Shown here piece by piece: positions 1,672 through 51,258 of a stretch of DNA of 64,000 bases. The notes under the pieces are model-generated. The model did no database searches, was not told the DNA's origin, and worked only from the letters and a program-made list of their open reading frames with translations. The DNA is taken from IMG/VR virus record IMGVR_UViG_3300030202_001399; one strand, given 5' to 3'. Numbering within the stretch: position 1 is the stretch's first letter; each line of letters opens with the position of its first letter. The translations under genes and the position numbers were made by a program. This DNA comes from an uncultured virus (IMG/VR IMGVR_UViG_3300030202_001399). Its lineage: Duplodnaviria; Heunggongvirae; Uroviricota; Caudoviricetes.

Positions 1672-2319
1672 TATGTTTATCCCCTTCTTTTTTCAAAAAA
1701 TGGCCCGGAATTTTTCTGCTACTAGCAAATTATTTTTTTTCTTTTGTTGTGCATTCCCAAGATAAGGATTTAACGAACGCCTGTTGTTACACAAGAATGT
1801 ATTTCTATTTGTATTTCCTGTTGTATTTAGTCGCACATTTAGTAGTGAACCTTTTTTTACAAACTTTCCTTTTAGGTGATTCTCCTTGACCATATCATAC
1901 AATCCGATAACACCCTAGTAGATTATTTTAACTCAAGAGATTAAAAAACAACAGGAAAAAAAATTTGGCATATGGTTGGATAAAAAACTGTTAGCATATG
2001 GTAGTATTTACTTTGTCAAAGCGTAGCGATGCTACCTCAAGAACTGAGGAGTCAGGACAGGGACAGTTGTTGCATGGTTAAGGATACATACCTGACTAAC
2101 TGCTTAGAATGTATTCCGGCTTCATCTAAGTCTAACTGCACTGCTACGCATAATCGCATGTCGAACTAACTGTTTGTCCATCATCCCCATTGTTCAAACA
2201 AGGCTGAGACTGCGAACTATTCTCATGAATCACCTTCGCTGGTGAAACCTCGCTTTCCCCTTAAGGGTGGAGTGGTCAGGGCTTACATCCCAAGTAGCCT
2301 TGTGAATGCCTGTTATGTA

Positions 2320-3069
2320 TTACTCTTCTTCCGAAGAGGCTTTGTCTCTTGCTTCTCTCAGCATCTCAATGACTGAGGGTTTGCATTCTGATGAATGCTT
2401 TGAAACAACATCGAAGTTGCAAGAGATGATTGGTTCTTCTGTTGAGAAGAGTTTCTTATCGAATGTCTCCGAGTAGATTACACTCTCAAAGACAGATTGT
2501 ATCTTCCCCATCAGTGGTGTGGGTAAGTCAACCAAATGCTGTTCAATAGCATCAGCCTTCTGAACTCTCTCAGTTGTCCATTCAGCAGTAAAGGTTAGTT
2601 TACTAGTGTATGTGTATGCTGTATAATCAACGAATAGTTTGACGTTCGCCTCTCCTACATCATTCTCAGAAACGATGTGGAACTTCTGAGAGTAAGAACC
2701 AAAATGATATGGTGCATCCAAGTAAAGGATGGTGCTTCCACGCCATTGTGGGTCAACAACTGTCTCTGTAATTTCCTCACTGACAACAGGCTCATCGTTA
2801 ACTTCGATGCCTTGTGCTACTAATTGGTTGATGACTGCTTGAGCCTCACTTCGATAGTTGAACACTAACTGACCGTTATACATCACAACTGTAAACTTAC
2901 TTTGAATGTTTTCAACAGTCTCAGATTCATAGGATGGTATCTCGGTATCCCAACTGTCCAAGTTGATTATGTTGTGCTTGGACAACTCAAGGTTAAGAAG
3001 TTCCTTCTCACTGCTGGTAAACCCGAATGGGTAAGATATCTCTACTGTTCTCTTGTGCTTCTGACTCAT
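2320..3069 (-). CDS. Hypothetical protein (249 aa)
   Basis: Long ORF, ATGA-coupled to the upstream ORF. Confidence 0.7.
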   Translation of the reverse strand: MSQKHKRTVEISYPFGFTSSEKELLNLELSKHNIINLDSWDTEIPSYESETVENIQSKFTVVMYNGQLVFNYRSEAQAVINQLVAQGIEVNDEPVVSEEITETVVDPQWRGSTILYLDAPYHFGSYSQKFHIVSENDVGEANVKLFVDYTAYTYTSKLTFTAEWTTERVQKADAIEQHLVDLPTPLMGKIQSVFESVIYSETFDKKLFSTEEPIISCNFDVVSKHSSECKPSVIEMLREARDKASSEEE

Positions 3070-3245
3070 TCAATCAACTCCTGTATGTTTGAGAGTCCTG
3101 CTCTCAACTCTGCTATCGCTAGGGATAGGTCATCACCACGAACCTTGAGGCTCTTGATGATAAGAACATGGTCAGAGCCTGATTTGGCATGACCAAGTTC
3201 CACTTCATAGGCGGGCATTTGTATGGGTACTTGTTGTGCTTCCAT
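3066..3245 (-). CDS. Hypothetical protein (start re-assigned to ATG at 3245, MEAQQVPIQ...)
   Basis: ATG directly follows the repeated promoter-like motif (...AAGGTC-ATG), as in the other cassettes. Confidence 0.6.
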   Translation of the reverse strand: MEAQQVPIQMPAYEVELGHAKSGSDHVLIIKSLKVRGDDLSLAIAELRAGLSNIQELIE

Positions 3246-3260
3246 GACCTTACAAATTAT

Positions 3261-3330
3261 CATCACCTTATGAGGTAAGGTCGCTGCGCTTCACAAAGTA
3301 TGCCTTACCATATGGTAGTGTTTACTTTGT
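3261..3330 (-). promoter_or_regulatory. Repeated cassette element: promoter-like motif plus palindrome (best copy)
   Basis: CATCACCTTATGAGGT at 3261-3276, then ACAAAGTA-N5-TACCATATGGTA-N5-TACTTTGT at 3293-3330. Confidence 0.8.
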
Positions 3331-3400
3331 CTCTCCGCACTACCTCAAAGGCTGATGAATCAGCCTAAGAGTGTAGGTGTAGAGGTGCAGGACTACCTAA

Positions 3401-3874
3401 TCAGTTGTCCCCCTTGTGAGCAGATACGAAACCTGCCTCAAGTTTGGTCATTAAGGTGTGAGCGACCATGTTCTCATTGCTTCCCCACGATGTTAGTGGT
3501 TCGTTGTTCTCATCCTTACGGCCTGAGAAGGTTGTGTGATATTCATATGCATCCTCCCCAAGAGTGATGGTTGTTATACCATCATGGGTAATCATCTGCA
3601 CAGTTTCAGCCCAAAGTGCTTGCAGTTCGTCAGATAGTCTTGCAACTCCCGATGCTCTGCTTGATGCTCTTCGTCCATTCAAAGGAGAGTCCTCAAATTG
3701 TGAGAGGATATCCTTGATAGTCCTTGACAGCCTTACTTGCTGTCGAGGGTCATTTGTTCCCTGAACTATGAAGTTCTTAGCCATATCAGCCGTGAACTTG
3801 TCATCAGGGGCAGTCAGTGTTTCAACGTAGTTAACTACGGTCTCGCTAAAGTCATTCCAATTTTCCATTGCCAT
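3401..3874 (-). CDS. Hypothetical protein
   Basis: 157-aa ORF with GGAG SD, downstream of a repeat element. Confidence 0.7.
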   Translation of the reverse strand: MAMENWNDFSETVVNYVETLTAPDDKFTADMAKNFIVQGTNDPRQQVRLSRTIKDILSQFEDSPLNGRRASSRASGVARLSDELQALWAETVQMITHDGITTITLGEDAYEYHTTFSGRKDENNEPLTSWGSNENMVAHTLMTKLEAGFVSAHKGDN

Positions 3875-3933
3875 TCATTTCATCTCCATTATAGTGTATC
3901 GCACCTCTACGACCTACATTAGTACACCAAGAA

Positions 3934-3992
3934 CATCACCTTATGAGGTAGTCTTTGACAAAGTATTGACTACCATATGGTGGGAACTTTGT
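3934..3992 (-). promoter_or_regulatory. Repeated cassette element
   Basis: CATCACCTTATGAGGT at 3934; ACAAAGTA-N5-TACCATATGGT..ACTTTGT at 3958-3992. Confidence 0.8.
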
Positions 3993-4159
3993 ATCCGATA
4001 ACACCTCGTAGGGTAGAGCAGACAGCCCCCTACTAATGAAATCCTTCCATTTCACTTCGGGGACTGCCTCCTCATTCAATTAACTCAATAATGAGAGGCT
4101 TCTTTCATATCTGCCGTTCTTAACCTGCCCATTATACTCAATTATTGAGCCTATCGAGT

Positions 4160-5944: not shown

Positions 5945-6310
5945 TCCCTATATGTATAGTATATCATATATGTTATATGGATATCTTATCCCATATATAC
6001 ATACTACATATCGTAGTGTATTTACACAGAAATCTATTATTCTCATATATTCTCAATTTTATCATTGAGTGAGAAAATTAAAATGTGGCTAAACAGGCTA
6101 GAAATATAGATTATAATTAATATTATCATTTTATCAATATTATCATTATCTTATACTACTACTATATGTCCATATTCTTCTTCTCTCTCTCCTATGGAAA
6201 GCGTGATAAAATTGATAAAATGAGAAAATAGCACAAAAACGCTACACTGCTCTAATGTTGTATTTTATCAGTGAGTGAGAAAATATGATAATAAATGATA
6301 AAAGGACAAA
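5945..6310. repeat. AT-rich tract with iterated TGA(G/T)AAAAT-type and inverted TT(C/A)TCA motifs; origin candidate
   Basis: No ORF; lies at the coding-strand switch; GAGTGAGAAAAT occurs twice; many TGATAA/TTATCA copies. Confidence 0.45.
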
Positions 6311-6325
6311 CAGGTTGGAAATAAC

Positions 6326-6664
6326 ATGACAGAAAACAAGGAAAACAAATGGGGTGCGAAAGCACAAACAACAGAGAATGAAATCACTGGCAATGCCAGT
6401 TTAGATTCACAGAAGAGAATAGCAACGGTCTGCGATGAGATGAAGATGATGCTTCTTCAGAAGAACAATCAGTATGGAGATTCGGTATTGAATCCAATGC
6501 GATTCTTTTCTCATGCAGACCAAGAAGAACAAATCAAAGTCAGAATCGATGACAAGTTGAACAGGCTTGTCCAAGGTAATGACTCATTAGAATCAGATGA
6601 AGATATCATCAAGGACTTGATTGGATATCTGACTCTACTACTTGTCTCTAGAAGAGATGAGTAA
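6326..6664 (+). CDS. DUF1599 / nucleotide-modification-associated (MazG-like all-helical) protein
   Basis: 'LQKNNQYGDS...VRIDDKLNRL...DIIKDLIGY' pattern. Confidence 0.7.
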   Translation: MTENKENKWGAKAQTTENEITGNASLDSQKRIATVCDEMKMMLLQKNNQYGDSVLNPMRFFSHADQEEQIKVRIDDKLNRLVQGNDSLESDEDIIKDLIGYLTLLLVSRRDE

Positions 6665-6666
6665 TC

Positions 6667-7320
6667 ACACTCCACCAATGCTCGTAGAACCAAGAAGTCC
6701 TTAGCGGGATTTCGGTGAGCATGGAGATTCGGGGGTTTCCGAATAATTAGAAGGAAAGATACTAGGGTTGTAACAGAAACAACAAACGTCAAATCTAGCG
6801 AAGAGACTAGTAGTTGTGAAAAACGAGTTCGTCCAATGAGGCTTGGTTCACTGTACTCATTTGAGAAGCGGTGTGTTAAATTCCAAGTCGTGGAACAATT
6901 GGATGGCTTTGCGCTATAAAAAATAAAGCAGGTTAATTCGGTTACATAAACAATATTGGCTTTGTGTTCTACCACAGAGCAGTTCCCTACCCGTCGGTAT
7001 AGGCATAGCACTAACCTTCTTCCCCCCTCCAATTCAAACATCGGTTTACTGCGGTAAAAAAAGCAAATCAATAGCAGTGATGGGATTCATCTCCCCCATG
7101 CTTTTATCCGATATCACACTCGAAAGAGTATGGTGTTCGCTTGCGTAAGTCCTGACGAGGCAATAAGAACTTAATGAAGAGAATAAACCAGTTGCGGTGC
7201 AAAATCTTCGCCATACTATTCACACTCGTAAAGAGCAGAGTTGCTAACTAAAAAAGACAAAGCATATGCTGGGCAAGCATGTCAGCAAAGGGTCGTGGTG
7301 GCTCTAGTCTTCTCTGCTTT
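6667..7320 (+). ncRNA. Candidate tandem cluster of structured ncRNAs
   Basis: About 650 nt with no plausible ORF; many nested complementary stems; CACA(C/T)TC linkers between units. Confidence 0.5.
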
Positions 7321-7347
7321 CACATTCAATTAATAGGAGAAATAAAA

Positions 7348-7920
7348 ATGAATATATTTACTTTAGACAAAAGCCCGATAAAGAGTGCCGAACTAATGCT
7401 GGACAAGCATGTAGTCAAGATGCCAACTGAAAGTTTGCAGATGTTGTTTACAATAGTTGACCATCTAGGTTTGGAAGCAGGTTGGAAACCTGTGATGTTG
7501 AATCACCCATCTACTATTTGGGCGAGAGAAACAAGACAGAACTTCCAATGGTTGCGTGAGCATACCTATGCACTGTGCAGGGAGTATAGTTACAGATATG
7601 GTAGGATTCACAAGGTCGAAGTCTTGATGAACAGATATTCGACACAGATGGATGAGGCAGAGATGCTTCTTCCTGATGATGGTCTTACTCCGTTTGCTAT
7701 TGCTATCTCTCCACATATGGAGTGTAGGAAAGCAGATGGTTTTGACGACATGACAACAATCGAGAAGTATCGTCAATACTATCTTGATGACAAGTGGCGA
7801 TTCGCTATTTGGACTAGAAGAGAAGAACCTGAGTGGTGGCCTGAAGACCACTTCTTGAGAAAGTCATTTGACTATAAACAGGAGAGCGATGCTTTCCTAA
7901 CGAGGTTGGGATTAATATGA
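7348..7920 (+). CDS. Pyrimidine-dimer DNA glycosylase-like protein (DenV/EndoV-related family)
   Basis: 'MNIFTLD..P...A....DKHVVKM..E..QML', 'NHPSTIW', 'EY..RYG..H', 'YRQYY...K'; start re-assigned after GGAGA SD. Confidence 0.7.
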   Translation: MNIFTLDKSPIKSAELMLDKHVVKMPTESLQMLFTIVDHLGLEAGWKPVMLNHPSTIWARETRQNFQWLREHTYALCREYSYRYGRIHKVEVLMNRYSTQMDEAEMLLPDDGLTPFAIAISPHMECRKADGFDDMTTIEKYRQYYLDDKWRFAIWTRREEPEWWPEDHFLRKSFDYKQESDAFLTRLGLI

Positions 7921-12826: not shown

Positions 12827-14009
12827 AGAAATCACGAATGAAACTAGTTCGTTCCTATGTAAGACTAATCGTGATTTACGTCATATCCTACGCATGGATA
12901 GGCGTAACCAGTTCGGTGAATATATGTTTGATGCAGGTAGAAGCAGTGGTTCTACGAGGAAGTTTCATGAGAACAGATATTGGAATCTATTTGCATACAG
13001 AATGTACGATATGTTTGTGAGAACACATAGTAATAGTAAGTCTAACGAAATGACATGGATTACCTTCCGTTATCACAACGGAGACTCATCTATTATGTTG
13101 CGAAAGGACGGCAGTACATTATACATGAATGGGGTTAAGAAAAACCAAAACGATGTGGCAATTGCTCTTGCTAAGATAATTGCTTTTGGAGCGCAGAATA
13201 GAGATGCACCAGCAATGGAAGCCTACATCGAGAGGAATGTAACATATTCAGGAAACATACTGTATGCTCTAGAGAACAGAACACCATATTGGTTGTTTGT
13301 TGATGGGACACAACATAACGTAAAGATGAACACTACTCTCATTAGTAGAGATGAAGTAGCGTTTGAGGTATCGGAGAATGTTTGGGGTTCTCTTCCTCTT
13401 GATGAGGCTACCACGTTTATTGACTGTTATAGAAACCATGCAAGGAGGTCAAAGAAGTGGGCTAACATCAGTCCATCCAATTTATGGTTCAATATGTTTG
13501 GTACACACGCAACAGATAATCAAGAGGCACTAATGAAAGCGTGGCTCTTACAAAACAGAACTGATGTGATTGTCGAAGAGAGAGCATTCCATCTTCTACA
13601 AGACATGGACAGAAACTACGATGAGTTCACACTTGTTGACTTGCGTAAAGAACCATTCTCAACTATGAGTATAACCGAGAGGTCTAACAGCCTTAACTTT
13701 GCGATGCATGTAAAGGGAAGTCTAGGTGATTGGTTAGTATATCCAAACAGCAGAACATCAGGAACACAACGATGTAAAGCCATCTTCTTCAAATCTAAAG
13801 ACAAGGTAGATGGCCCATTCTGTATTGATGATATTAATGGTAAGAACGTAGTCGGAGACCAAATAGCAACGAGAGCAATGTTGTTGAAGAGCGATACAGT
13901 CGCTAAATCTATGGTCTCTACGTTGAGGAGTGTGGAGAAGTCTAGTTATCGCATACCCAACAGACAACTAAAGAACGCCAAATTTACGGAGAAGTTAACA
14001 TGGAGATAG
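12777..14009 (+). CDS. Hypothetical protein (410 aa) with a C-terminal Cys-containing domain
   Basis: Long ORF; 'HVKGS...FCIDD...GDQIATRAMLL'. Confidence 0.75.
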   Translation: MMKMKIKITLPRVRTDREITNETSSFLCKTNRDLRHILRMDRRNQFGEYMFDAGRSSGSTRKFHENRYWNLFAYRMYDMFVRTHSNSKSNEMTWITFRYHNGDSSIMLRKDGSTLYMNGVKKNQNDVAIALAKIIAFGAQNRDAPAMEAYIERNVTYSGNILYALENRTPYWLFVDGTQHNVKMNTTLISRDEVAFEVSENVWGSLPLDEATTFIDCYRNHARRSKKWANISPSNLWFNMFGTHATDNQEALMKAWLLQNRTDVIVEERAFHLLQDMDRNYDEFTLVDLRKEPFSTMSITERSNSLNFAMHVKGSLGDWLVYPNSRTSGTQRCKAIFFKSKDKVDGPFCIDDINGKNVVGDQIATRAMLLKSDTVAKSMVSTLRSVEKSSYRIPNRQLKNAKFTEKLTWR

Positions 14010-14890
14010 TATCAATGAAGTGTCCTGAATGTGAGGGATATGATTGGACATTTGATGATTCGTTAGGTGAAAATGTCTGTGATGATTGTGGGCTAGTACA
14101 AGTTGTTAGACCATTTGAAGAGACAAGCAGACTCACATCTACTTATGGACATACAAAGGAATTGGGTTCTCTGATTATAGAGACAAACTCAAACTATACA
14201 AGAAATCAGATGCACCGTATGAAGAAACATAACGTGTATGCATCAGCACTTTCAGAAGCAGATAGAAGAACGATAACACTGTGTAATATGATTCTCTCTA
14301 ATTATAGTGTAGGTAGTTCCATCAAATCCAAAGTGGATGTATATCTGAGGTCGCTTAAAGAAGAGCATTTGTTCAGAGGATGTACTGTCGAGCAAAGAGC
14401 AGCATCACTCTCCTTCTATATTCTAAAGGAGAGCGATATACCAATGAACATTAGAACACACAGTAAGTATTCAATGGTGGAGAGTAAGTATATCTCCCGT
14501 TGGGCTAAAAGAATAGCAAGACATTTCAGAAAGTCATACATTTTCGCTCAGGAAAACCCATTGCGTAACGCAACTGGTATAATTGATAGATTGGACAATG
14601 TTCCTGATGGTTATCGTCCTGATGCTCTTAGCATGATTCAGTTTCTAGAGAGATTCTACGAGGAGCAGAACATTCGTTTCTCTCCTAATAAGATAGTTGC
14701 TGCACTTTGGTTGGCAGGAAGGATGGGAAAACACGGAGTAACACAGAAGCAATTGGTGAAGTCATCAGGAAACACTTCTTCTGAAATAGGAATAAGAGAG
14801 CAGATAAGAGAAATGAAACGATTCTTTGGTTTATCTAGAGAAGAGTTGTACGGAATGTCCGTATCTGATTTTACAAATGGAGCGTATTAA
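14000..14890 (+). CDS. tfb: Transcription initiation factor IIB (TFB) homologue
   Basis: N-terminal Zn ribbon CPEC..D...GENVCDDCGLV, then two cyclin-like repeats ('FRG..VE..AA..FY', 'P..IVAALWLA...VTQKQL'). Confidence 0.85.
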   Translation: MEIVSMKCPECEGYDWTFDDSLGENVCDDCGLVQVVRPFEETSRLTSTYGHTKELGSLIIETNSNYTRNQMHRMKKHNVYASALSEADRRTITLCNMILSNYSVGSSIKSKVDVYLRSLKEEHLFRGCTVEQRAASLSFYILKESDIPMNIRTHSKYSMVESKYISRWAKRIARHFRKSYIFAQENPLRNATGIIDRLDNVPDGYRPDALSMIQFLERFYEEQNIRFSPNKIVAALWLAGRMGKHGVTQKQLVKSSGNTSSEIGIREQIREMKRFFGLSREELYGMSVSDFTNGAY

Positions 14891-27945: not shown

Positions 27946-29625
27946 ATGATAATAGCAAACACGAAAGACGGCATTCTTCTAAGATGGAGGGATGAGGAAG
28001 ATAGAAGAGTAGAGAAGTCTATATCATTCAAGGAGTTCAGTCCGTATTTCTTTATTCGTAGTGCCGATTATGCGGATGATAATTCAACTGGTCTAATACC
28101 AGTGAAAGAAGGCTACCGAGGAAAGGAAGGTATAATGGTTCAACTTTACTTTGAACAAGGTGACTGGAAGAACCTTGAAGGAGAACAATTGACAAAGATA
28201 ACATGGTCTCCTTCCAAGACAGGTAAAACAGAAGCAGGAGCAATGACACATAAGGTGAAGACACATTACCATGACAGAGACATTCAAACATACGAGGCAG
28301 ATGTACAACATCATTACAGATATGCTGTTGATGAATTAGAGACAATGCCTGAATACAATCTACGCAAGTGGTATTGGGATATGGAATGGATGCAAGGAGG
28401 AGAGCATGATGGAGCGATTACTGCTATTGTAGTGTATGATAACTACGATGATGAATACTACACACTGACTTGGCAACCTGACTCTGATGAGTCTGAGAGA
28501 ACAGTTCTTGAGAGATTTATTCTGATGATTACAGAGAAAGACCCTGATATGCTTATCTCTTGGTTCGGATGGAAGTTCGATTTGCCCAAGTTGATTGAAA
28601 GACTTCAGGTAAACGGAATCGACCCAAGACTTCTCTCTCCAATTCAGGAAGTGAAAGGAGTAGAATGGGATATCAAGGGAAGAAAGGTTATCTTGAAGAA
28701 CAAGCAGATTGAGAATTACTCACCTATTGCACAACCAATCAAAGGTAGGATTTGTGTTCCACTGGATTTAGCATTTGAAAGACAATGGAATGATGCTCAA
28801 AGAGGGACACTACCTTCTCTATCTCTAGACTATGTATCAGAAAGCGTATTGGGAGAGAAGAAGTTAGTTAGCGAGAAGTTTCCTGATAAGAACGAGTTCT
28901 TCAGAAGAGGTTGGCAAGAAGACTCTGAAACATATCTAGAGTATGCTGTTAAAGACGTTGAGTTAATCAAGAGGATAGACGATGAGAACTTCACTACTGA
29001 AGCAATACTCTCGTTACAACGTTTGCTGATTGCTCCCTTCGATGCTTGCTTCTATGCTTCCAACATGGGTGGAATATACTTCATGCGGAATGCCTCATGG
29101 AAAGCCCCTACGGGCAGAAAAGGTGACAGGGTAGAGTATGATGGTGCAATGGTCTATGACCCTCTCAGTGAGGCTACAAATGGTCTTCATTTGGGTGTTG
29201 CAGCATTTGACTTTGCTGGTCTATATCCATCTATGATGATAGCAAGAAACATATCATGGGAAACCAAGTCTGCAACCATTACTGAGTTTGGTGTAAATCT
29301 GAAGACTCCTAAAGACTTCTCTGAAATTAAAGACCATGACATGAGATACTACAAGACTGATAGTTTAGGATTGTTACCAAAGGCTGTCTTGGAACTAAAA
29401 CAGTTGAGAAACGAATACAAAGTGAAAATGAAAGAAAGTGAAAGTAAAAGTGAATATGTGAAATGGAACAACAACCAACTTGCAGTCAAGAGATTGATGG
29501 CATCATTCTATGGTATCATTGCGTATCAGGGATTTGGTTGGGCTGATGTTGACCTAGCAGCGAGCATTACTGCTAGTGCAAGAGAAGCAATTCGCATTGC
29601 AGCGTTCAAAGTGAGGGAATTATAA
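27946..29625 (+). CDS. polB: Family B DNA polymerase, N-terminal part (exonuclease plus motifs A and B)
   Basis: ExoI 'WDME', ExoII 'FDL', ExoIII 'YAVKD', 'FDFAGLYPSMM', 'KRLMASFYG'. Confidence 0.92.
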   Translation: MIIANTKDGILLRWRDEEDRRVEKSISFKEFSPYFFIRSADYADDNSTGLIPVKEGYRGKEGIMVQLYFEQGDWKNLEGEQLTKITWSPSKTGKTEAGAMTHKVKTHYHDRDIQTYEADVQHHYRYAVDELETMPEYNLRKWYWDMEWMQGGEHDGAITAIVVYDNYDDEYYTLTWQPDSDESERTVLERFILMITEKDPDMLISWFGWKFDLPKLIERLQVNGIDPRLLSPIQEVKGVEWDIKGRKVILKNKQIENYSPIAQPIKGRICVPLDLAFERQWNDAQRGTLPSLSLDYVSESVLGEKKLVSEKFPDKNEFFRRGWQEDSETYLEYAVKDVELIKRIDDENFTTEAILSLQRLLIAPFDACFYASNMGGIYFMRNASWKAPTGRKGDRVEYDGAMVYDPLSEATNGLHLGVAAFDFAGLYPSMMIARNISWETKSATITEFGVNLKTPKDFSEIKDHDMRYYKTDSLGLLPKAVLELKQLRNEYKVKMKESESKSEYVKWNNNQLAVKRLMASFYGIIAYQGFGWADVDLAASITASAREAIRIAAFKVREL

Positions 29626-29825: not shown

Positions 29826-29938
29826 GTATAGAAGAGTGGTCACAAGACCGATTTGCAACACTAGCACTACTCAGAACTGTTTTTGGTCTTGTGAAAGTGA
29901 TTATTGCGGCTATTATAGCAGTGGAGTTGTTAACATGA
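29822..29938 (+). CDS. 38-aa membrane peptide inserted between the polB halves, not in the ORF track
   Basis: MSIEEWSQDRFATLALLRTVFGLVKVIIAAIIAVELLT; ATGA overlaps at both ends. Confidence 0.55.
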   Translation: MSIEEWSQDRFATLALLRTVFGLVKVIIAAIIAVELLT

Positions 29939-30870
29939 AGGTGGTTTACGGACATACTGACTCAATTTACGTTGATATTGAGGACAATAGCATTGAAACT
30001 GCTAAACAAACTCTAAAAATACTCAATGACCATGTTAGGAAGGCATTTCCTAACGTTATGGGACTAGAAGAACATCCTGTGACCCTAGAGTTTGAGAAAT
30101 ACTTCCGAACTTTAGGTGTTGGGGCAACAAAGAACAGAAATGCTGGCCTAATTACTTGGAAAGACGGTGACTTCCTCGATGAAGAGGAGTTTACGATGAC
30201 TGGATTCACTGCTAAGAGAGTTTCATTGACAAAACTAGCAAAAGAAGTACAACTTGCTGTTCTAAACATGTGGGTAGAAGGTAAAACAGAGCAAGAAATC
30301 GTTTCTTACTTGAATGACAAGTATAATTCTGTTATGAGAGGCAAGATTCCTCTATCAGATGTTCTACAAAGAAGCAGATTTCGTGAAGAGAGATTCAGAT
30401 TAGTCTGCAAGGATTGTAATCCGAAGGCTAGATTCGACAAAGGATGGAACAACAAGTCCGTAAGTGTATTCGATTTGATGAATCACGGAGGGTGCATAGA
30501 TGATATGGGTAGAGTGATGGAGCATACCAACTTCGTAACTGTTGGTGGTAAAAGACCAACGTTTGGTTCAGGAGTTGAAGGTGTCTTGTTTAGTCATTCA
30601 CAAGGATATGAGAAGATAGAGGACACTTATCTATACCTTAGAATTAAGGATTGTAGAGAACATTATCTGCATCCAATAACTAAGCAGTTCACTACCCCTA
30701 ATTATGTGTCTAGGTTAACTGCTGATGAGTTCAGTGATTTTAGTCCTGATTGGTCTCACTACGCAGAATCAGTAGTGAAGAAAGCAGAGCCTATCTTCAG
30801 AGCAATGGGGTGGGATATCATGCAGATAAAGAAAGACACACAACAATCATCTTTGGAGGAATGGTTTTGA
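29935..30870 (+). CDS. polB: Family B DNA polymerase, C-terminal part (motif C plus thumb)
   Basis: Starts MKVVYGHTDSIYV; 'LEFEK', 'KNRNAG'; C-terminal PIP box QQSSLEEWF. Confidence 0.9.
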   Translation: MKVVYGHTDSIYVDIEDNSIETAKQTLKILNDHVRKAFPNVMGLEEHPVTLEFEKYFRTLGVGATKNRNAGLITWKDGDFLDEEEFTMTGFTAKRVSLTKLAKEVQLAVLNMWVEGKTEQEIVSYLNDKYNSVMRGKIPLSDVLQRSRFREERFRLVCKDCNPKARFDKGWNNKSVSVFDLMNHGGCIDDMGRVMEHTNFVTVGGKRPTFGSGVEGVLFSHSQGYEKIEDTYLYLRIKDCREHYLHPITKQFTTPNYVSRLTADEFSDFSPDWSHYAESVVKKAEPIFRAMGWDIMQIKKDTQQSSLEEWF

Positions 30871-38945: not shown

Positions 38946-41900
38946 TCACCCTAATACTACCCACTCACTAGCACTGACTGCAATGCAGGTCTTTGCTTCG
39001 TATCTTGTAGTAATTGTTTGATTGCTGGTTGAGCCGTTCATTGTATCCGACCCGTTTGCTGCGATAGTTACTGTTCCCGTTGTGTTGCTGATGATAACAT
39101 ACTGGTCTCCCCTTTCGGGAGTAGCAGGTAGTGTGAATGTCATTGCACTAGTCGCCATTAGGTACAGACCAGCGTAGTCATCGTAGTCCAATGTTTGATT
39201 GCTGCTAAAAGTCCGTAGTTGTCCTGCCTTTGCTGCAACACCCGCAGCAGGAGTGTCACCGTGAGCGAGATTGTTAGAACCAACTGATAGTAGCCTTTTC
39301 TGACTGTCCTTGACTAGGATGGATAAGTACATCTCACCATCAGCGTTGCCGCTGGTTTGGTCAGGCACTAGAACTCCTATCCTAGCATAGTCCCTCAAAT
39401 CATGTATCGCTGTTTCGCTACCTACCTCTAGCATACTTGAGTCTGCACCCATGAACTTAATCATTCCAATATTGTCATCGTCAGCAACCTCGGTATCAGA
39501 AGTGTTCCTTAGCAAAGAGATGATTGGTGCAGCATCAGCAGAGGAATCAATATTAGTGAATACGAATTGTCCTAGCCCTTTCGCTTTGAATGACATCCCA
39601 ACATCATCCTCATCCGAAATCGCCTCGAATCCCGGCCCAGTCATACGACCTGCTCCGGCGGTGTTGTATGAGTTGTGAGTTACATCTGTACCGAACAGAG
39701 TACCGCCAGTGGTATCTGAGATACCATTCCATATCTTGATGTACGAGTTTGCATTTGCTGTCTTACCAAACAGTAGTTGCTCATTGCTAGAATCGTCAAG
39801 GATACCATGACCGTCATCAATCAGAATGTTCTGACTGTTAGTATCCAAGTTACCACCGAGTTGTGGGCTAGTGTCATCTACCAAGTCAGACAAACCACCA
39901 CTGCTACTAACAACGAGGTCAATTGTTCCATCAGAGTCCTGATAGGTAGCAGTAATGTTGGTTTCCGTATTACCTGAGAACATACCGCCTACAATATCTT
40001 GAACTTGCTCTGTTGATAATTGTGTATTTGTGTTAGTGGTGAAAGTTAGACTATTCTGCATATAATCTTGTAGAACAGACACATCCATCCTCTTCAGAGT
40101 TCCAGCGTCACTCAACACTAATTCATCAGTTGATGCTAGACCACTTGTTAGAGCAGTCGCACCTGTGATATCTGATACAGAGAAGTTCATGTCATCTGCA
40201 ACTAGGTCTATTGTGCCATCGCCATCCTGATACGTTGCCGACACTCTAGTTTCTGTATTACTGCTAAACATAGCCCCAACTATATCTTGAATTTCTTCTG
40301 TTGTTGGAACATCACTTGTATATGCAACAGTAGAGGCAGTTCCCCAATTCGTATCATCTTGGTCTGCTCGGTAGTGATAGATTCTCTTTGTGCTGTTCTT
40401 AGCGAATGCCAATAGGTTTGCATCTCCACCTGTATGTCCTGTGAATGTATCCAATACTAAAACATCAACATAATCACCAGCGTTAGTGGTTGAACCATCC
40501 TCTAATCCTGTCTTTGTTGAGAATCTTCCTGATATTTCTCTAATCGTATTTGCCAAGTCTTCAGGAGCAAAGTCCCTATCATCATCTGTTTTCAAGTATG
40601 GAGCGTGTAAAGTTCTGAAATCCAAGTCGAATGGGTCTGCATCTGAACCCGGAGATATATCAGAGTAGTTGATGTCTACACTTGTATCTCCACTGTGGAA
40701 CTTAATCTCTTCAGCGTCTGATATGGATACTTCAGTGCCATCATCATCTTCTAAAACAAATGTCATTTGAGTACCAACTAGGTCAATCGTTCCATCTCCA
40801 TCCTGATATGTAGCAGAAATATTTGTCTCAGTATTGCCAGTGAACATCGCTCCTACAATATCTTGAACCTGTTCAGTAGTTAGTGTGGCAGTGATAAACC
40901 CTGAAGAACTGTTATCATAGTTAGACAGGTCATTGTCTACTACTAAGTCAATAGTACCATCACCATCTTGATATGTAGCGGTAATCAGAGTTTCCGTGTT
41001 CGATGAGAACATTCCTCCTGCAATATCTTGTACTTGCTCATTGGAAAGTTGCGTGTTTGTGTTTGTCGTGAACGTTAGATTGTTTTGCATGTATGTCTTT
41101 AGTCTAGACATTGTTGCCTTTCTGTTAGTGCCACCTGCACCATCATCAACTATCATTAGGTCAGCATCCACTAACGCTGCATTAATGTCAGTCATCCCGT
41201 CAATATCCAAACCAACAGTAACAGTATCCGTAGACCCTACTACTGTGGCAATTCCATCTCCACCCGCTATGTCTAATGTGTTACCATGAGCGATGGTTTG
41301 GTTGCTACCGGAATCACCTGTCAATGTGAACGTAGTCAATTGGTTAGTGTTATCATTTGCAGTCATATCATCTACAACTAAGTCTATCGTACCATCACCG
41401 TCTTGGTAAGTCGCACTTATTCTAGTCTCAGTATTAGAACTAAACATAGCCCCGACTATATCCTGAACCTGTTCCGTAGACAACTGAGTGTCAGATAACT
41501 GACTAGTTAGAGCAACTGTTCCAGTAGCATCCGGTAGAGTGATTGTTCTATCAGCAGTAGGGTCAGTAATAGTTAGTGTTGTCTCATTAGTATCAGAAGT
41601 AGCACCCTCAAACACAATTGCGTTTGCTGCCTCCATAGTTACAGTATCAACAGTCGTTGTTGTTCCAGCGACATTCAGGTTAGGAACAAGTAATGTTCCT
41701 GTGCTTGGGTTATATCTCAAAGCACCAGTGTCATCCAGTAAACCATTTGACTCATTATGGAATACAACAGGGAAGTTAGTATTCGCAGTGCTATCTGTTA
41801 CTGTTACAGTTGTTGCTACTGCGGCAGTCCCGCTAGTGTTCTGATTACCAGCAGTGTTAACTCCGGGTAGATTTATGTTTGCAGTTCCGTCAAAACTAAC

Positions 41901-44534
41901 ACCACCGATGTTCCTTGCTGTTTCAAGTGCGGTTGCAGTGGCTGCGTTACCTGTTGTATCTTGATTAAGAGTTCCTACAACTAAGTCTATTGTACCGTCT
42001 GCATCTTGATAGGTTGCTGTAATACCCGTTTCAGTATTGCTACTAAACATTCCACCTGCTATATCTTGAACCTGTTCTGTGCTTAATTGAGTGTTAGTAT
42101 TGGTTGTAAATGTCAGGTTATTTTGCATGTAGGTTTTCAGTCTACTCATTGTTGCCTTGCGATTCGTTCCTCCTGCTCCGTCATCTACAATCATCAAATC
42201 AGCGTCAACTAATGCAGCGTTGATATCCGTCATGCCATCTATGTCTAGACCAACTGTTACTGTATCTGTTGACCCAACAACGGTTGCTATACCATCTCCA
42301 CCAGCGATGTCTAGTGTATTTCCATGTGCTATCGTTTGATTGCTTCCTGAATCTCCTGTTAGAGTGAATGTTGTGAGTTGGTTGGTGTTAGCCGTCATGT
42401 CATCCACTACCAAGTCGATAGTGCCATCTCCATCTTGGTAGGTAGCAGATATTCTTGTTTCCGTGTTGGATGAGAACATAGCCCCAACGATGTCCTGTAC
42501 TTGTTCATCTGACAGTTGGGTGTTGGTATCTGCTGTCATATCGTCTACAACGAGGTCAATAGTACCGTCACCATCTTGATACGTTGCACTTATTCTTGTC
42601 TCTGTGTTTGAACCAAACATCGCACCTACGATGTCTTGAACATTCTCAGTAGACAATTGTGTATTGGTATCTGTTGCTGCGATAGTTACCGTATCACTGG
42701 ATGCGTTTGTCGTCAGTGTAACATTAGAACCCGCAGCAAAAGTAAGAGTATCTGTTGCTGAATCTGCTACGACATTATCTTGCCCACTAACGGCTATCGT
42801 CTTGAATGCTTCACTCGCACCTGACGATGCGGCTGCTGCTATCGTAACTGCTCCACCTGATTCTGATATTGTGATATTGCTACCTGCTGTAAAAGCAAGA
42901 GTTTCGTTTGAAGCAAGAGTGTTGCCACCAGCAGTGACTGGTCTGAAGGTATTCGTATCAGATACAGAATTAGTGATTGTTACTGCACCACCGCTTTCAG
43001 AGATAGTGATTCCAGTTCCGGCAGTAAAGGCTAGGGTTTCTCCGTTTGCTAATGTGTTACCGCCAGCAGTTACAGTTCTAGGTGCAGTCAGATAAGATTG
43101 CAAATCACTGATTTGTGATTCAGTTATTGAAAGAGCAGCCTGATGCTGTGTGACGTTACTCTCTGCTACTCTTGCATCTGCAAATGTACCTGATGTTATC
43201 TTACTCGTAGCAAGATTTGGTATATCGCTTGCTGAAAGTCCATCATCGAGTATGTTTATTTCCGCTAGTGAAGCAGTGATACCTAGATTGGTCAGAGCGT
43301 TTCCTTGTTGTGTAGAGTTTAGTCCTTGGTTACTAACATCAACTCTCAGTCTGTTTCCTAGTGAAGTAGCAGTTGTTGTAGAGAAGGAGGCATCGTCACC
43401 AAGAGCAGCAGCAAGTTCGTTTAAGGTATTGAGAGCAGATGGTGCTGAGTCTACAAGTGATGCAAGTTCATTATCCACATATGCCTTTACCGACTGTTGA
43501 CTAGCAGCAGCAGTAGCACTGTTAGAACTCATGTTATCTTGGTCTAGAAGAGTTAACTGTGTATTGGTATCAGTTGAGGCAATAGTGACTGCTCCTCCGC
43601 TTTCTGTTATTGTCACATTAGAACCAGCAGTGAAGGCTAATGTCTCTGAACCTCCTAATGTATTACCACCTGCTGTCACAGTTCGGAATGTGTTTGTATC
43701 TGCTGTCATGTCATCTACGACTAAATCAATAGTCCCATCTCCGTCCTCATAGGTTGCAGATATCCTAGTCTCTGTATTGGAAGTGAACATAGCACCGACA
43801 ATATCCTGCACTTGTTCGGTGGTTAGTTGGGTATCAGAAAGAGAAATAGTACCGTTACTAGAGGGAATCGTAAGGTCACTAATCACATTGTTATCGCTAC
43901 CAACAAAAGATAGAGTTGCTCCACTTGATGCTGCTGCTCCGGTTGTTACTCTAAGGTTAGTAGTAGTTGCTCCAACTAGTTGAACACTGTTAGCAAGCGT
44001 CTTATCTCCTGTGGCGTTCAAGTCTATTGTTCCATCACTATCCTCATATGTTGCCGAGATACCTGTCTCTGTATTAGAGGAAAACATTCCTCCAACTATA
44101 TCTTGAACGTTCTCAGTAGTGAGAATAGTATCAGTGGTGAATGTAAGGTTGCTCTGCATGTAAGATTGTAGCACACTGACATCCATTCTCTTCAATGTAC
44201 CAGCATCACTGAGAACCAATTCATCAGTAGAAGCAAGTCCACTTGTCAGTGCTGTTTGTCCTGTGATATCTCCTACAACGAAGTTAGATGCTCCTGAAGT
44301 AACGAAGTTTTGTGCGGCTATGTAATCGAAAACCGCATCACCAGTGACTAGGTTAGCATTACCATCAGCGACTGAGCCAGTTGTTGCGGCTATCGTGGAA
44401 TCGAATGACAAAGTACCATCATCATTGATTGTAATTGTCTTAGTAGAGTTATCAGCACCAGTGACTTCTATCTTTGGTTTTGCACTCTGTCCTGTGTTTG
44501 GTGTAATTAGAATGTCCTTATCTGAGTTAGCCAT
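38946..44534 (-). CDS. Long repeat-rich tail fibre/adhesin (1862 aa)
   Basis: Many 'TQLSTEQVQDIVGAMFSSNTETRISATYQDGDGTIDLVV' repeats; 'APSALNTLNELAAALGDD' fibre motif. Confidence 0.85.
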   Translation of the reverse strand: MANSDKDILITPNTGQSAKPKIEVTGADNSTKTITINDDGTLSFDSTIAATTGSVADGNANLVTGDAVFDYIAAQNFVTSGASNFVVGDITGQTALTSGLASTDELVLSDAGTLKRMDVSVLQSYMQSNLTFTTDTILTTENVQDIVGGMFSSNTETGISATYEDSDGTIDLNATGDKTLANSVQLVGATTTNLRVTTGAAASSGATLSFVGSDNNVISDLTIPSSNGTISLSDTQLTTEQVQDIVGAMFTSNTETRISATYEDGDGTIDLVVDDMTADTNTFRTVTAGGNTLGGSETLAFTAGSNVTITESGGAVTIASTDTNTQLTLLDQDNMSSNSATAAASQQSVKAYVDNELASLVDSAPSALNTLNELAAALGDDASFSTTTATSLGNRLRVDVSNQGLNSTQQGNALTNLGITASLAEINILDDGLSASDIPNLATSKITSGTFADARVAESNVTQHQAALSITESQISDLQSYLTAPRTVTAGGNTLANGETLAFTAGTGITISESGGAVTITNSVSDTNTFRPVTAGGNTLASNETLAFTAGSNITISESGGAVTIAAAASSGASEAFKTIAVSGQDNVVADSATDTLTFAAGSNVTLTTNASSDTVTIAATDTNTQLSTENVQDIVGAMFGSNTETRISATYQDGDGTIDLVVDDMTADTNTQLSDEQVQDIVGAMFSSNTETRISATYQDGDGTIDLVVDDMTANTNQLTTFTLTGDSGSNQTIAHGNTLDIAGGDGIATVVGSTDTVTVGLDIDGMTDINAALVDADLMIVDDGAGGTNRKATMSRLKTYMQNNLTFTTNTNTQLSTEQVQDIAGGMFSSNTETGITATYQDADGTIDLVVGTLNQDTTGNAATATALETARNIGGVSFDGTANINLPGVNTAGNQNTSGTAAVATTVTVTDSTANTNFPVVFHNESNGLLDDTGALRYNPSTGTLLVPNLNVAGTTTTVDTVTMEAANAIVFEGATSDTNETTLTITDPTADRTITLPDATGTVALTSQLSDTQLSTEQVQDIVGAMFSSNTETRISATYQDGDGTIDLVVDDMTANDNTNQLTTFTLTGDSGSNQTIAHGNTLDIAGGDGIATVVGSTDTVTVGLDIDGMTDINAALVDADLMIVDDGAGGTNRKATMSRLKTYMQNNLTFTTNTNTQLSNEQVQDIAGGMFSSNTETLITATYQDGDGTIDLVVDNDLSNYDNSSSGFITATLTTEQVQDIVGAMFTGNTETNISATYQDGDGTIDLVGTQMTFVLEDDDGTEVSISDAEEIKFHSGDTSVDINYSDISPGSDADPFDLDFRTLHAPYLKTDDDRDFAPEDLANTIREISGRFSTKTGLEDGSTTNAGDYVDVLVLDTFTGHTGGDANLLAFAKNSTKRIYHYRADQDDTNWGTASTVAYTSDVPTTEEIQDIVGAMFSSNTETRVSATYQDGDGTIDLVADDMNFSVSDITGATALTSGLASTDELVLSDAGTLKRMDVSVLQDYMQNSLTFTTNTNTQLSTEQVQDIVGGMFSGNTETNITATYQDSDGTIDLVVSSSGGLSDLVDDTSPQLGGNLDTNSQNILIDDGHGILDDSSNEQLLFGKTANANSYIKIWNGISDTTGGTLFGTDVTHNSYNTAGAGRMTGPGFEAISDEDDVGMSFKAKGLGQFVFTNIDSSADAAPIISLLRNTSDTEVADDDNIGMIKFMGADSSMLEVGSETAIHDLRDYARIGVLVPDQTSGNADGEMYLSILVKDSQKRLLSVGSNNLAHGDTPAAGVAAKAGQLRTFSSNQTLDYDDYAGLYLMATSAMTFTLPATPERGDQYVIISNTTGTVTIAANGSDTMNGSTSNQTITTRYEAKTCIAVSASEWVVLG

Positions 44535-47500
44535 TAGTATTCAACCTCCATCTTTCCGACATCCTTTCTCTCACCGTGTATTATGTAGAAGCAGTCAATG
44601 CCCTCATCTGCTGCATTAGCCACGAACACTTGGTTGTCTTCTATCTTTTCTACGAAGAGCATTTGGAAATCGCCGTTTGGAGTCAATTGTACTGTTATTG
44701 TATCTTCATCGACTAGTTCTGTCCAATACTCAGGAAGTTGTATTACATCTCCTTCTAATCTGCCTCTATGATACACCCCATGTTCCGGCCCTTCAAGAGA
44801 ACCATGTTGTAGTGTCTTTCCTTCTTTTGTTGGATGTGGAATTACGAAAGACTTGGTTGTAGCACCGAATGAGCCATTGACTTGTAGTTTGAATCCCGGT
44901 GAGGTTGTTCCAATACCTACTCTTGTATTCGTGGAGTCAACGTGTAATGCATCCGTATCAACTGTCATGTCCCCTGATACAGTAAGTGAAGATAGTGTTC
45001 CAACGCTTGTTATTCCTGATTGTGCTGCATCTACATTTAGTGTATCGCCACTTAATGTCAATCCAGTTCCAGCAGTTAGGTTAGTATCATCCGAGATGTC
45101 TATTGGGTCTACTGTAATTGCCTGACCACTGATACTCAGATAGTTTCCACTACCTGTGAGTGTGACGTTAGTGGAGTTATCTGTTCCAGCCGCATCAACA
45201 CCTAATGCAGTTCTTGCGGCAGATGCTGAAGTAGCCCCAGTTCCTCCCAGTGAGAGAGGCACAGTTCCAGCAGTGATTGCCTGTCCTGATAAACTGAGAT
45301 AGTTGTTTGATACAGTCGCAAGAGTCACATTCGTTGAGTTGTCTGTTCCTGCGACATCCACATTCAAGTTAGTTCTAGCATTAGATTGCTGTGTTCCACT
45401 AAGTCCCTGTGAAGCGGTATCTACTCTGAGTCTATTACCTAATGCAGTAGTAACTGTTGAAGAAAAAGTAGCATCGTCATTTATCGCTGCTGCTAATTCG
45501 TTGAGTGTATTCAATGCACCCGGAGCAGAATCTACTAGACTTGCTACCTCAGTATCGACATAAGCCTTGATTGATTGTTGGGTAGCAAGATGTGTTGCTG
45601 AGTTAGAAGCCATATTGTCTTCGTCTTTTACTGGAACTACGAAGTCAAGCGTTCCATCTCCGTCTTCATATGTGACACTAATGAATGTCTCAGTGTTACC
45701 TGTAACCATTCCACCTACGAAGTCTTCTACTTGCTCTTGAGACAATTGCGTATTGGTGTTAGTAGAACTGAAATCCAGTTTACCGTTTGTGTCATCATAA
45801 GTTACAGTAATGTTGGTCTCAGTATTACTGCTTACCATAGCACCTACGATATCTTCAACTTGTTCTGTTGTTAACTGAGTGTTCGTATCTGTGGATGCTA
45901 TTGTTAGTGTACCACTTGCGTCATCATATGTTTTGCTTATATTTGAACCAGCGACAATTACACCATTAACAAAATCCTCTACTTGCTCTTGAGTTAGTTG
46001 CGTATTAGTGTCAGTGCTTACAAAGTTTAGTTTGCCTCCTGTATCGTCATATGTCACTGAGATATTTGTCTCGGTGTTGCTACTTACCATTGCCCCTACT
46101 ATATCTTGTACTTGTTCTGTTGAGAGTTGCGTATTAGTGTCGGTAGATGCGATTGTAACTGCACCCGCACTTTCAGATATCGATATATTAGAGCCAGCAG
46201 TGAATGCAAGTGTCTCACTGTTCGCTAGTGTGTTTCCACCTGCTGTAATGCTTCTAGGTGCGGTTAAGTATGATTGAAGGTCGCTTATCTGAGACTCAGT
46301 AATAGATAATGCTGATTGGTGTTGAGTTACACTTCCTTCAGATATCCTTGCATTTGCAAATGTTCCTGAAGTAATTTTACTAGCAGCGAGGCTTGGTATC
46401 CTTGCTGTGCCTAACGTACCGCTTGTTATCTTGGAAGCAGCGAGGCTTGGTATGTCACTTGCAGATAGCCCGTCATCTAGGATGTTTATCTCTGCTAGGC
46501 TTGCAGTTATTCCCAAGTTTGTTATTGCATTACCTTGTTGTGTAGCAGTTAGTCCCTGACTGTTGGTATCTACTCTAAGCCTATTACCTAATGAAGTAGA
46601 AGTGGTAGTTGCAAAGTTAGCGTCATCTCCTAGAGCAGCAGCCAACTCATTCAGTGTATCTAAAGCAGCCGGAGCAGAGGAAATCACTCCTGCCACTTCT
46701 GCGTCAACGTATGCTTTTATTGACTGCTGACTGGCTACCTTTGTTGCTGAGTTAGATGCCATATTATCTTCATCTAACAAGTCAGATGAGATTGAGTAGT
46801 TGTTAGCACTAGCAGCAATACCGTTTAGTTTCGTGTGGTCAGCATCTGTGAATACGTTTGAGTCTGATGCAGATTCAACTAGAGTCCTAATTTCTGCGGC
46901 AGTTTGGTCAGCAGTAGCAGCAGTTTCAATCCCTGCTAGTTTGTCAAACTGGTCATCAGTCATTAAACCATGAGCAGAGGTTGTTGCATCGGGTATCGTT
47001 GCTGTTATTGTAGAAGAGTCAGTCTTTGTCAGAGTCAAAGTATTGCCACTGTATGACACTGCATTGATAGGTTGTGTAGTGCTATCAATGATTATTCTCT
47101 CGTTTATTCTACTAACAGTTATACTTCCACTGCCTTCAAAGTTTACAGAAGTAAAACTGCCGTCTGTTCCAGTGAGTTTCAATCTCTTTGTGTTATTGAC
47201 TCCTGTATCCTCCACACTGAATGCATATTGTGTATCGTTTGCATCAAATGAAACTAAATCGACATAACTCTTCACAGCCTTTGCAGATGGGACAGTATCA
47301 TGGCTACCACTTACAGCAGTGATATCTGTATCTAGAGCAGTTATACCTGCAAGGTCTGCAATAGTAGCAGACGTAGTTAGATAGTTACCAGCCGCTTGTT
47401 TTGCATTTAGTTGAGTCTGTATTGCAGATGTTACACCATCCAAGTATCCAATTTCAGCAGCAGATACACCAGTCACACCATCTAGTATGTTTAGTTCTGC

Positions 47501-50896: not shown

Positions 50897-51258
50897 TAGT
50901 TACCCACCTCTACTCGTATTGTGAACGAAACCGTATCTCCACTGGCTACAACACCAGTATTCGTGAAGGTGACTCGGCTCAATAACGTGCCGTTTCCGTT
51001 TGTTGTTCCTGTGACAAAGATGCCTATTTCAGAAGCACCGGAAGGAGGAATCTGCGCTCCTGTGAAATCAACATTGTATATCAGAGTAGAACCCACTACT
51101 GTTGGGGTCTGACCAGTCTTCTGAAAGAAGAAGTTGTTCAATCCTGTTTGGCTTGCTGATGTGCTATCCCCACCATCTCCTATGGCAATAACATTGTATT
51201 GTCCCGCTATTAGTGTCGCTACTGCATTTGCTCCTTCGTTTACTACTGTCATCTTCAA
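50896..51258 (-). CDS. Small tail/baseplate protein resembling a fibre N-terminal anchor domain
   Basis: 'IAIGDG...EIGIF...LLSRVTF'. Confidence 0.6.
   Translation of the reverse strand: MKMTVVNEGANAVATLIAGQYNVIAIGDGGDSTSASQTGLNNFFFQKTGQTPTVVGSTLIYNVDFTGAQIPPSGASEIGIFVTGTTNGNGTLLSRVTFTNTGVVASGDTVSFTIRVEVGN

Follow-up and report, generated by a model that had tools for sequence, protein, structure and literature searches.

The locus

The stretch of DNA analysed here, called the window throughout, comprises 64,000 nucleotides (nt) from an uncultured virus of the class Caudoviricetes (IMG/VR record IMGVR_UViG_3300030202_001399). Its positions 6665-7347 form a gap of about 680 bases without a credible open reading frame (ORF), in which RNAs of conserved structure lie one behind the other and share a short border motif, the linker. 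The features of this locus and the two genes that flank it are:

6326-6664: upstream ORF of 112 amino acids (aa), PHROG 1485, no assigned function
6666-6672, + strand: linker 1, CACACTC, with CUC(C) 6670-6673 as the partner strand of GGAG 6723-6726
6670-6726, + strand: H1, a three-tiered hairpin with the cap loop UAGCG, 5' part of an RNA of ~357 nt
6731-7025, + strand: domain L, multi-branched, ~295 nt, closed by two stacked long-range helices
6842-6887, + strand: peripheral hairpin of domain L, optional in that 11 of 23 sequences lack it or have it in truncated form
7029-7036, + strand: degenerate linker CCAATTCA, the border between L and H3
7040-7112, + strand: H3, a Y-shaped hairpin; UCUCC in the apical loop is near-invariant
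7115-7121, + strand: linker 2, CACACTC, followed by CUC-GAAA-GAG
7127-7217, + strand: unit B, a cassette that is exchangeable and almost invariant in its interior
7221-7227, + strand: linker 3, CACACTC
7234-7318, + strand: unit C, with base helices AGCAGAG/CUCUGCU and AAGAC/GUCUU and a variable interior
7321-7327, + strand: linker 4, CACATTC, directly before GGAG 7336-7339 and ATG 7348
7348-7920: downstream Pyr_excise-like ORF of 190 aa, with its ATG at 7348 and the ribosome-binding site GGAG at 7336-7339

Every frame on both strands of the gap carries 6 to 17 stops and all three stop kinds, which rules out hidden coding or an alternative genetic code, and the longest ORF on the + strand has 33 aa. 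In pairwise comparisons with relatives, 102 internal insertions or deletions have a length that is not a multiple of three, against 31 that do. The relatives are ~70-88% identical to the window over the whole neighbourhood, so the gap is not unusually conserved in sequence, and it is the pattern of change that carries the signal. One such RNA locus per genome is found in five of five related virus records.

The original prediction, made by a model from the sequence alone, had described the gap as several folded RNAs of ~60-100 nt released from one precursor at the linkers. Its basic observations are borne out: there is no credible ORF, the linkers lie on the + strand where it had placed them (CACACTC at 6666, 7115 and 7221, CACATTC at 7321), and all four closing stems that it had drawn are present.

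A large conserved RNA

Loci of relatives were found through the two flanking proteins and through a conserved-core pattern in metagenome contigs (41 loci), and the homologues form a graded series with nhmmer scores from 534 down to about 18. The structure was drawn from an 8-sequence alignment with RNAalifold and counted on 23 distinct homologues, taken from contigs of marine viruses and marine metagenomes.

In this structure, the hairpin 6670-6726 and the domain 6731-7025 form one RNA of ~357 nt. Across the 23 homologues standard pairs occupy 92.3% of 2465 cells, compared with 81.2 ± 0.4% after shuffling and 39.5-46.8% when the partners are slid against each other. Changes on both sides are seen in 60 of 117 pairs (36.5 ± 2.9 after shuffling), a count reached by none of 500 shuffles, and all five pairing measures lie above every one of these shuffles. 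The statistics overstate independence, since all 8 sequences recur among the 23 and the homologues are relatives of one another; the distance to the slid control is still large. Cells with G·U outnumber those with A·C by 246 to 30, which identifies the + strand as the RNA strand.

The evidence for pairing extends from the 5' hairpin to the long-range helices. In H1 (helices 1-4), 14 of 21 pairs are changed on both sides, and the TAGCG of its loop is invariant in 23 of 23 sequences. Two helices close domain L, GGGG 6731-6734/CCCC 7022-7025 and AGAAGG 6749-6754/CCUUCU 7015-7020; helices 5 and 6, the GGGG/CCCC enclosing helix, are paired in 95.7% and 100%, and the long-range helix 7 has changed on both sides in five of its six pairs. 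Between the helices stand the invariant unpaired strings AAGAU, UAUAAAAA, AGCAGG and GGCA-AG-AC. The hairpin at 6842-6887 sits at a different place in the RNA of one relative (L101) and is, with its frequent absence, an optional arm on the large RNA. Overall, the conserved helices of this RNA are as numerous as those of a small ribozyme.

A second lineage of the same RNA, called type 2, is found in seven loci (L012, L013, L122, L138, L140, L110 and L091) as an RNA of 390-410 nt between two linkers, and matches the window RNA at nhmmer E = 7e-7 to 1e-4. It is likewise headed by a capped hairpin of the H1 type, with UAGC in the cap, and keeps the core motifs in the same order. The strings common to both are AGAUAC-GG, GAGUUCG-CC, GCUUUGCGCUAUAAAAAA-AGCAG and GGCAUAG-AC, and both carry a hairpin of the GUGUU-CU-CAC type. 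In the consensus fold of type 2, 21 of 109 pairs show compensating changes among the seven sequences.

A cultured-phage collection gave no DNA match to the locus, nor did the nearest related record (G001). A scan of prokaryote genomes with the core pattern returned five bacterial hits, none of which matches the RNA profile and which are thus taken as chance, and exact-pattern scans of viral contigs recovered the known contigs plus only one new one.

As an observation apart, the two strands of the whole window together contain 76 copies of TAGCG, the word that forms the loop of the capped hairpins; 42 ± 6 are expected, and no shuffle reaches 76. This excess is spread across coding regions.

A modular array punctuated by linkers

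The large RNA is followed by smaller units that differ in how constant they are. H3 is kept in all type-1 arrays, those built like the window; its helices 19-23 are 82-95% paired with some covariation, as in the pair of alignment columns 501 and 559, which is AU in 12 sequences and UA in 8. Hardly any array lacks unit C, of which there are 24 distinct copies with a length of 71-183 nt, measured from AGCAGAG to the 3' strand. The unit always stands near the 3' end, with one further unit after it in L012. Its base helices hold an internal loop with 5' UUUU..UAAAAAA, are 92.2% paired compared with 40-58% when slid, and have changed on both sides in 5 of 15 pairs.

Unit B is the exchangeable part. 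Six distinct copies are known besides that of the window. The unit is present in L085, L128, L091, L012 and L018, and it is absent from L081, L083, L084, L001 and L086, as from most type-1 relatives, where its slot is filled by another cassette, by a small hairpin or by nothing. In L018 it is 87% identical to the window copy, compared with 67-68% for the flanking genes. Only 1 of its 27 pairs covaries among the six copies, which are too conserved for the fold to be testable in this way. The array of L018 also holds two tRNA genes among its structured units, tRNA-Leu(UAA) and tRNA-Lys(UUU) at 2512-2598 and 2887-2963, the latter with an encoded CCA end. Across relatives the locus thus shows a constant core (H1+L, H3 and C) and an exchangeable slot. 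Single-linkage clustering of the inter-linker segments merged nearly all of them and gave no usable module map.

The apical loop of H3 (7084-7095) invites a separate remark. Its near-invariant UCAUCUCC is complementary to the GGAGA(U) ribosome-binding sites of window genes and loosely resembles an anti-Shine-Dalgarno end; chance is a possible explanation.

What marks the borders between these units? The extended linker consensus is W-W-U-C-A-C-A-Y-U-C, and a linker stands before every non-tRNA unit and after the last one, with the same unit borders in relatives. Cassettes are swapped or lost exactly at linkers; directly 3' of linker 2 the content of the relatives diverges. At the column of the degenerate border 7029-7036, relatives show a full copy, TTACATTC or CACACATTC. 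In a redundant set of related arrays totalling ~99 kb, the RNA strand has 176 ACAYTC matches and the opposite strand 32.

The linker is also part of the structure. The pairing of linker 1 with H1 covaries, being CUCGA/UCGAG in L086 and UUCAAC/GUUGGAA in L108, and in type 2 the linker CUCAAC pairs with GUUGAG ~135 nt downstream. The 3' CUC of the linker is hence the first strand of the helix of the next unit, so that the single-stranded part is UCACA and the linker is not a pure spacer. A TATAAT-like box precedes the first linker of type-2 arrays by ~23 nt, and this linker could mark the transcription start there. A separate promoter for each linker was considered and rejected, as linkers 2-4 lack an A/T-rich box ~26 nt upstream in the window sequence.

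Seen against these data, the outline of the original prediction holds and its details shift. Covariation, which it had named as a check, is strong for the large RNA, and its stems at 6670-6726, 7040-7112 and the base helices of 7234-7318 are conserved through compensating changes; that at 7127-7217 is too conserved to tell (1 of 27 pairs). It was right about structured RNAs in series and underestimated the first, of ~357 nt: the stretch 6727-7039, which it had passed over, is the largest structured domain and not a spacer, as seen in the alignment of 8 and then of 23 sequences. The linkers do separate units in all relatives, with the amendments that their CUC is structural and that a fifth, degenerate border lies at 7029-7036.

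Traces in RNA libraries

Parts of the region 6300-7400 are held by 24 marine metatranscriptome runs from 12 studies. The evidence consists of assembled contigs, and those of four runs were aligned to the window:

Run X1: contig of 388 nt, identical to 6670-7026
Run X5: contig of 523 nt, 6524-7023, then extra letters
Run X9: contig of 437 nt, 6681-7117 over its whole length, through H3
Run X3: contig of 19.7 kb from a relative, spanning the whole region, with content swapped between 7121 and 7341

The ends of these contigs, from three studies, fall at ~6668-6670 inside linker 1, at 7023-7026 where the closing helix of L ends, and at 7117 inside linker 2. We take the letters after 7023 in the X5 contig to be Illumina adapter sequence, in which case the underlying fragments would have ended at 7023. 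The positions give a weak hint that the ~357-nt RNA and a longer form with H3 exist as discrete species. The start of the X5 contig inside the upstream ORF fits a co-transcription with this ORF. Units B and C (7132-7279) have no cover in the four runs, which shows nothing about them. Depths in X5 are 33 and 196 for RNA-array contigs compared with 2-3 for coding flanks, values that are not used here because contig depth cannot rank genes.

The virus and its host

The ORFs of the window include an RFC-like clamp loader, an ATP-dependent DNA ligase, a protein with a TFIIB-type zinc ribbon and an ERCC4/HhH nuclease, as well as a class II ribonucleotide reductase and giant tail-fibre-like ORFs. Two genes stand out with respect to the host:

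27946-29625 and 29836-30870: family B DNA polymerase (PolB), split in two ORFs with a gap of ~210 nt
14000-14890: ORF of 296 aa with an N-terminal TFIIB-type zinc ribbon, possibly a viral transcription factor of archaeal type

Among cultured viruses the best matches of PolB are haloarchaeal tailed viruses, at ~24% identity. For the group B magroviruses, which are assigned to Marine Group II archaea, the available text of Philosof et al. 2017 (PMC5434244) describes a split DNA polymerase, unique among archaeal viruses, and two tRNA genes. As the archaeal replication genes and the split PolB agree with that description, we infer that the window belongs to a group B magrovirus, a virus of marine archaea. 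The RNAs are consequently to be viewed through archaeal transcription and RNA processing. To our knowledge, neither the archaeal hosts nor their viruses have been cultured.

Further regions of the genome deserve mention. Upstream of the array, genes diverge from an AT-rich region at 5950-6320, which coincides with the switch in gene strand and with the minimum of the cumulative GC skew (~6000). Words like GTGATAAA recur in it, TTATCA-TGAGTGAGAAAAT is present twice, and it is probably a promoter and/or origin region that feeds the array. Within the leftward gene block, 1672-2319 (~650 nt) shows on its gene strand only an ORF of 69 aa and overlaps partly with the locally GC-richer 2001-4000; it could hold another RNA gene. 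The minus strand at 38946-58448 carries three giant ORFs in a row (1862, 2120 and 2397 aa), the middle one with matches to tail-fibre families and the largest without a PHROG or Pfam match.

Interpretation

Taken together, we read the gap as an RNA-gene locus of a marine archaeal virus. It would produce co-transcribed, stable folded RNAs, cut apart at the linkers, and it combines a constant core with swappable cassettes. We put the probability of this reading at about 60%. It builds on what is observed, namely the non-coding status, the conserved structure, the RNA strand, the modular make-up, the conserved border motif and the presence in RNA libraries; the co-transcription, the cutting at linkers, the nuclease and the function are proposed around these observations.

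The steps might be the following. One early transcript would run rightward from the promoter- or origin-like region near 6000, include the small upstream ORF, and then carry in order the ~357-nt RNA (H1+L), H3, one or no exchangeable cassette (B in the window) and the constant unit C. Before each unit it would present WUCACAYUC, with the single-stranded UCACA as the likely cleavage or initiation point and the YUC as the beginning of the first helix of the next unit. An endonucleolytic cut in UCACA would free the stable folded RNAs and leave the downstream mRNA with a short leader. Our guess for the enzyme is a CA-preferring β-CASP nuclease, such as one of the aCPSF1 or RNase J type. β-CASP enzymes of these types prefer single-stranded CA.

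Several points weigh against this picture. The contigs that start or stop in or beside linkers agree with a precursor that would be cut there, as in the original prediction. Contigs cannot show true ends, strand or level, those of X1 and X5 carry loose letters at their ends, which is why they give only a hint, and the 19.7-kb contig of X3 may be DNA carry-over, as DNA is possible in RNA libraries. Over the whole window the linker 7-mer is not enriched (25 matches, 26.8 expected). Folding energies, suggested earlier as a check, are only modestly better than those of shuffled sequences: z is -3.08 for H1, -2.09 for B and -1.87 for C, and weak for H3 (-1.21), domain L (-1.10) and the whole gap (-1.41). 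Unit C is significant in three of five shuffle measures and not in the other two, and the fold of unit B lacks support from covariation. Finally, no antisense target longer than 13 nt is found in the window, the longest being 12-13 nt and near chance.

Known RNA families and alternative explanations

Does the locus belong to a family already described? The original prediction recognised none, and database scans agree. None of 4227 Rfam families reaches its gathering score, and none appears at E up to 0.5 window-wide, with GOLLD, ROOL, RNase P, signal recognition particle RNA, group I introns and ribozymes covered. Relaxed scans of the gap returned chance-level hits only (CRISPR-DR52 at 18.9 bits, U6 at 13.8 bits), and in the related arrays Rfam found the two tRNAs of L018 and nothing else. 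The available main texts of two magrovirus papers (PMC5434244 and PMC11706807), supplements aside, mention no non-coding RNA except tRNA, and literature searches turned up no other magrovirus non-coding RNA.

A number of individual resemblances were pursued by eye and given up. Unit B contains the CUGACGAG of a hammerhead, with no GAAA after stem II, and its spacing is wrong for a C/D-box RNA. Strings like the P/Q/R/S elements of group I introns occur in the wrong order, and of a GGAAAG like that of RNase P CR-I only AAGAU is conserved among relatives. The printed sequence of Tan1, an abundant Marine Group II RNA (PMC5069720), looks unrelated in a comparison by eye.

More serious is the comparison with manA (RF01745), as the ~357-nt RNA might be a very divergent and enlarged member of this family that assembles into RNA-only multimers or cages. 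We consider this unlikely, although by its motifs manA comes closest among the known RNAs. Both are virus-borne structured RNAs from marine sequences, and the manA layout of a 5' hairpin and then a G-rich/C-rich helix enclosing a multi-hairpin core recurs in the window as H1 and GGGG/CCCC. In manA the G-rich strand is followed by the joining strand GUGaCUGAAUAA (GUGaCUGAAUAAaCUU), and in the window GGGG is followed by CCGAAUAA (GUUUCCGAAUAAUU), a short match made by eye; AAUAA of this strand is invariant or nearly so in the 23 sequences, and type 2 has AUGACUGAAC or AUGACGGAG. In one related record (G006), the minus strand at 1501-1735 of L146 holds a sub-threshold manA of 46.5 bits (the gathering cut-off of RF01745 is 55.2 bits), 3-4 kb from the RNA array of this relative, and its hairpins bear the same U-UAGC-G caps as the window RNA. 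The available text of a preprint (10.64898/2026.07.01.735769) reports that manA RNAs form decamers and a 60-mer cage.

Against membership speaks that the manA model finds no match in four scans: two of 381 nt and 1401 nt with E up to 10, one of the whole window with E up to 0.5, and one of type-2 arrays (10.5 kb) with E up to 1. The window and four other related records gave no manA RNA, and nhmmer profiles of the window RNA do not match the manA-like RNA of L146. The inner layout of manA, a hairpin with UAAgG, a three-hairpin junction and two 3' hairpins, differs from the window RNA in the set, number and order of helices. An intramolecular kissing pair between the loops UAGCG and CGCUA was considered and rejected, being mismatched in 5 of 23 sequences without a compensating change. 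Moreover, manA has 192 model positions compared with ~357 nt and belongs to cyanophages, whereas the window RNA belongs to an archaeal virus and to a linker-punctuated array with other RNAs. Judged by sequence and predicted fold, we file it as a putative new family that resembles manA in design and is not a member.

Other named systems share single traits with the locus. GOLLD and ROOL are large, ornate multi-domain RNAs of phages and prophages with optional peripheral hairpins, which often lie beside tRNA genes and multimerise. The window RNA is likewise large, multi-domain and virus-associated with an optional peripheral hairpin, but it is smaller, matches neither model and comes from an archaeal virus, whereas these families are bacterial; we know of no description of either within an array with a border motif. 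In the tRNA cluster of phage T4, tRNAs and small stable RNAs are made from one precursor by host nucleases. This is likewise a viral polycistronic RNA locus, but the window lacks tRNAs and has a dedicated linker motif, a ~357-nt member and an archaeal host. The precursor of CRISPR RNAs is comparable as a long transcript with a short recurring signal at each unit border; in the window, however, this signal has only 7-10 nt, the units are unrelated structured RNAs and not spacers, and ORF scans show no cas or other partner gene near the array. Archaeal excision at bulge-helix-bulge motifs was rejected, as both flanks of every unit carry the same-sense CACAYUC, which cannot pair into the outer helix; no back-joining joints are reported in the RNA-library data, which consist of contigs only.

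A different view would see the whole gap as a leader that acts in cis on the Pyr_excise-like gene and the replication operon, for instance as a riboswitch or an attenuator. The array does always lie directly upstream of a ribosome-binding site, and the constant unit C stands near its 3' end, with the further unit of L012 following. In the available text of Weinberg et al. 2010 (PMC2864571), manA itself was first described as a putative element of the 5' untranslated region. The gene that follows, however, varies among relatives, with an extra ORF coming first in L085, L086 and L012, units come and go, and in L018 tRNA genes stand in the same array. In none of the predicted folds is the GGAG site sequestered by a unit, no oligo-T terminator follows any unit, and the RNA contigs are confined to the RNA part (a weak point). 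A regulatory leader is therefore quite unlikely.

Could the elements act as DNA? They might be small mobile cassettes that end in inverted repeats and insert at CACAYTC, or hairpins in the single-stranded DNA of an origin near the GC-skew minimum at ~6000. Cassettes are indeed present or absent precisely at the motif, n units come with n+1 motifs, unit B is more conserved than the flanking genes, and the cumulative GC skew turns nearby. All copies, however, have one orientation and order, many internal and long-range helices covary beyond the unit ends, the asymmetry of G·U over A·C points to one transcribed strand, and no transposase or integrase is among the ORFs scanned. Signals at the DNA level are very unlikely to explain the locus.

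That the units are decayed or disguised tRNA genes or, as the original prediction had offered, tRNA mimics is hardly credible: true tRNAs do occur in the L018 array and a single A comes after the 7-bp closing stem of unit B, but ARAGORN reports no tRNA or transfer-messenger RNA in the window, and no tRNA even with introns allowed and thresholds lowered (the search recovers both tRNAs of L018 as a positive control), the Rfam tRNA model (RF00005) has no hit in the window and none in 14 of the 15 related arrays, and no consensus fold contains a cloverleaf.

Implications

We thus return to an RNA-gene locus with a constant core and swappable cassettes as the preferred reading. Within it, the large RNA would most likely be a trans-acting structured scaffold, self-assembling or protein-binding, rather than a cis leader, a view that we hold weakly and that derives from the cages reported for manA and the multimers of GOLLD and ROOL. 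A bolder version, which we offer tentatively and regard as doubtful, is a dedicated RNA operon in which UCACA-YUC would let a host nuclease cut the early transcript. The ~357-nt RNA might then be the archaeal-virus counterpart of the cage-forming manA, GOLLD and ROOL and build an RNA-only or RNA-protein assembly during infection, and the swappable cassettes (B, D and others) might tune it to hosts or defences.

For these viruses, the locus is a conserved, single-copy and early-positioned stretch of the genome that is given to folded RNAs. It offers a new RNA family for catalogues and, to the study of RNA in archaea, a candidate processing signal. As their length permits synthesis in vitro, the RNAs can be tested without culture of the host, and they would allow us to ask whether the cage-forming habit of phage RNAs extends to the viruses of archaea.

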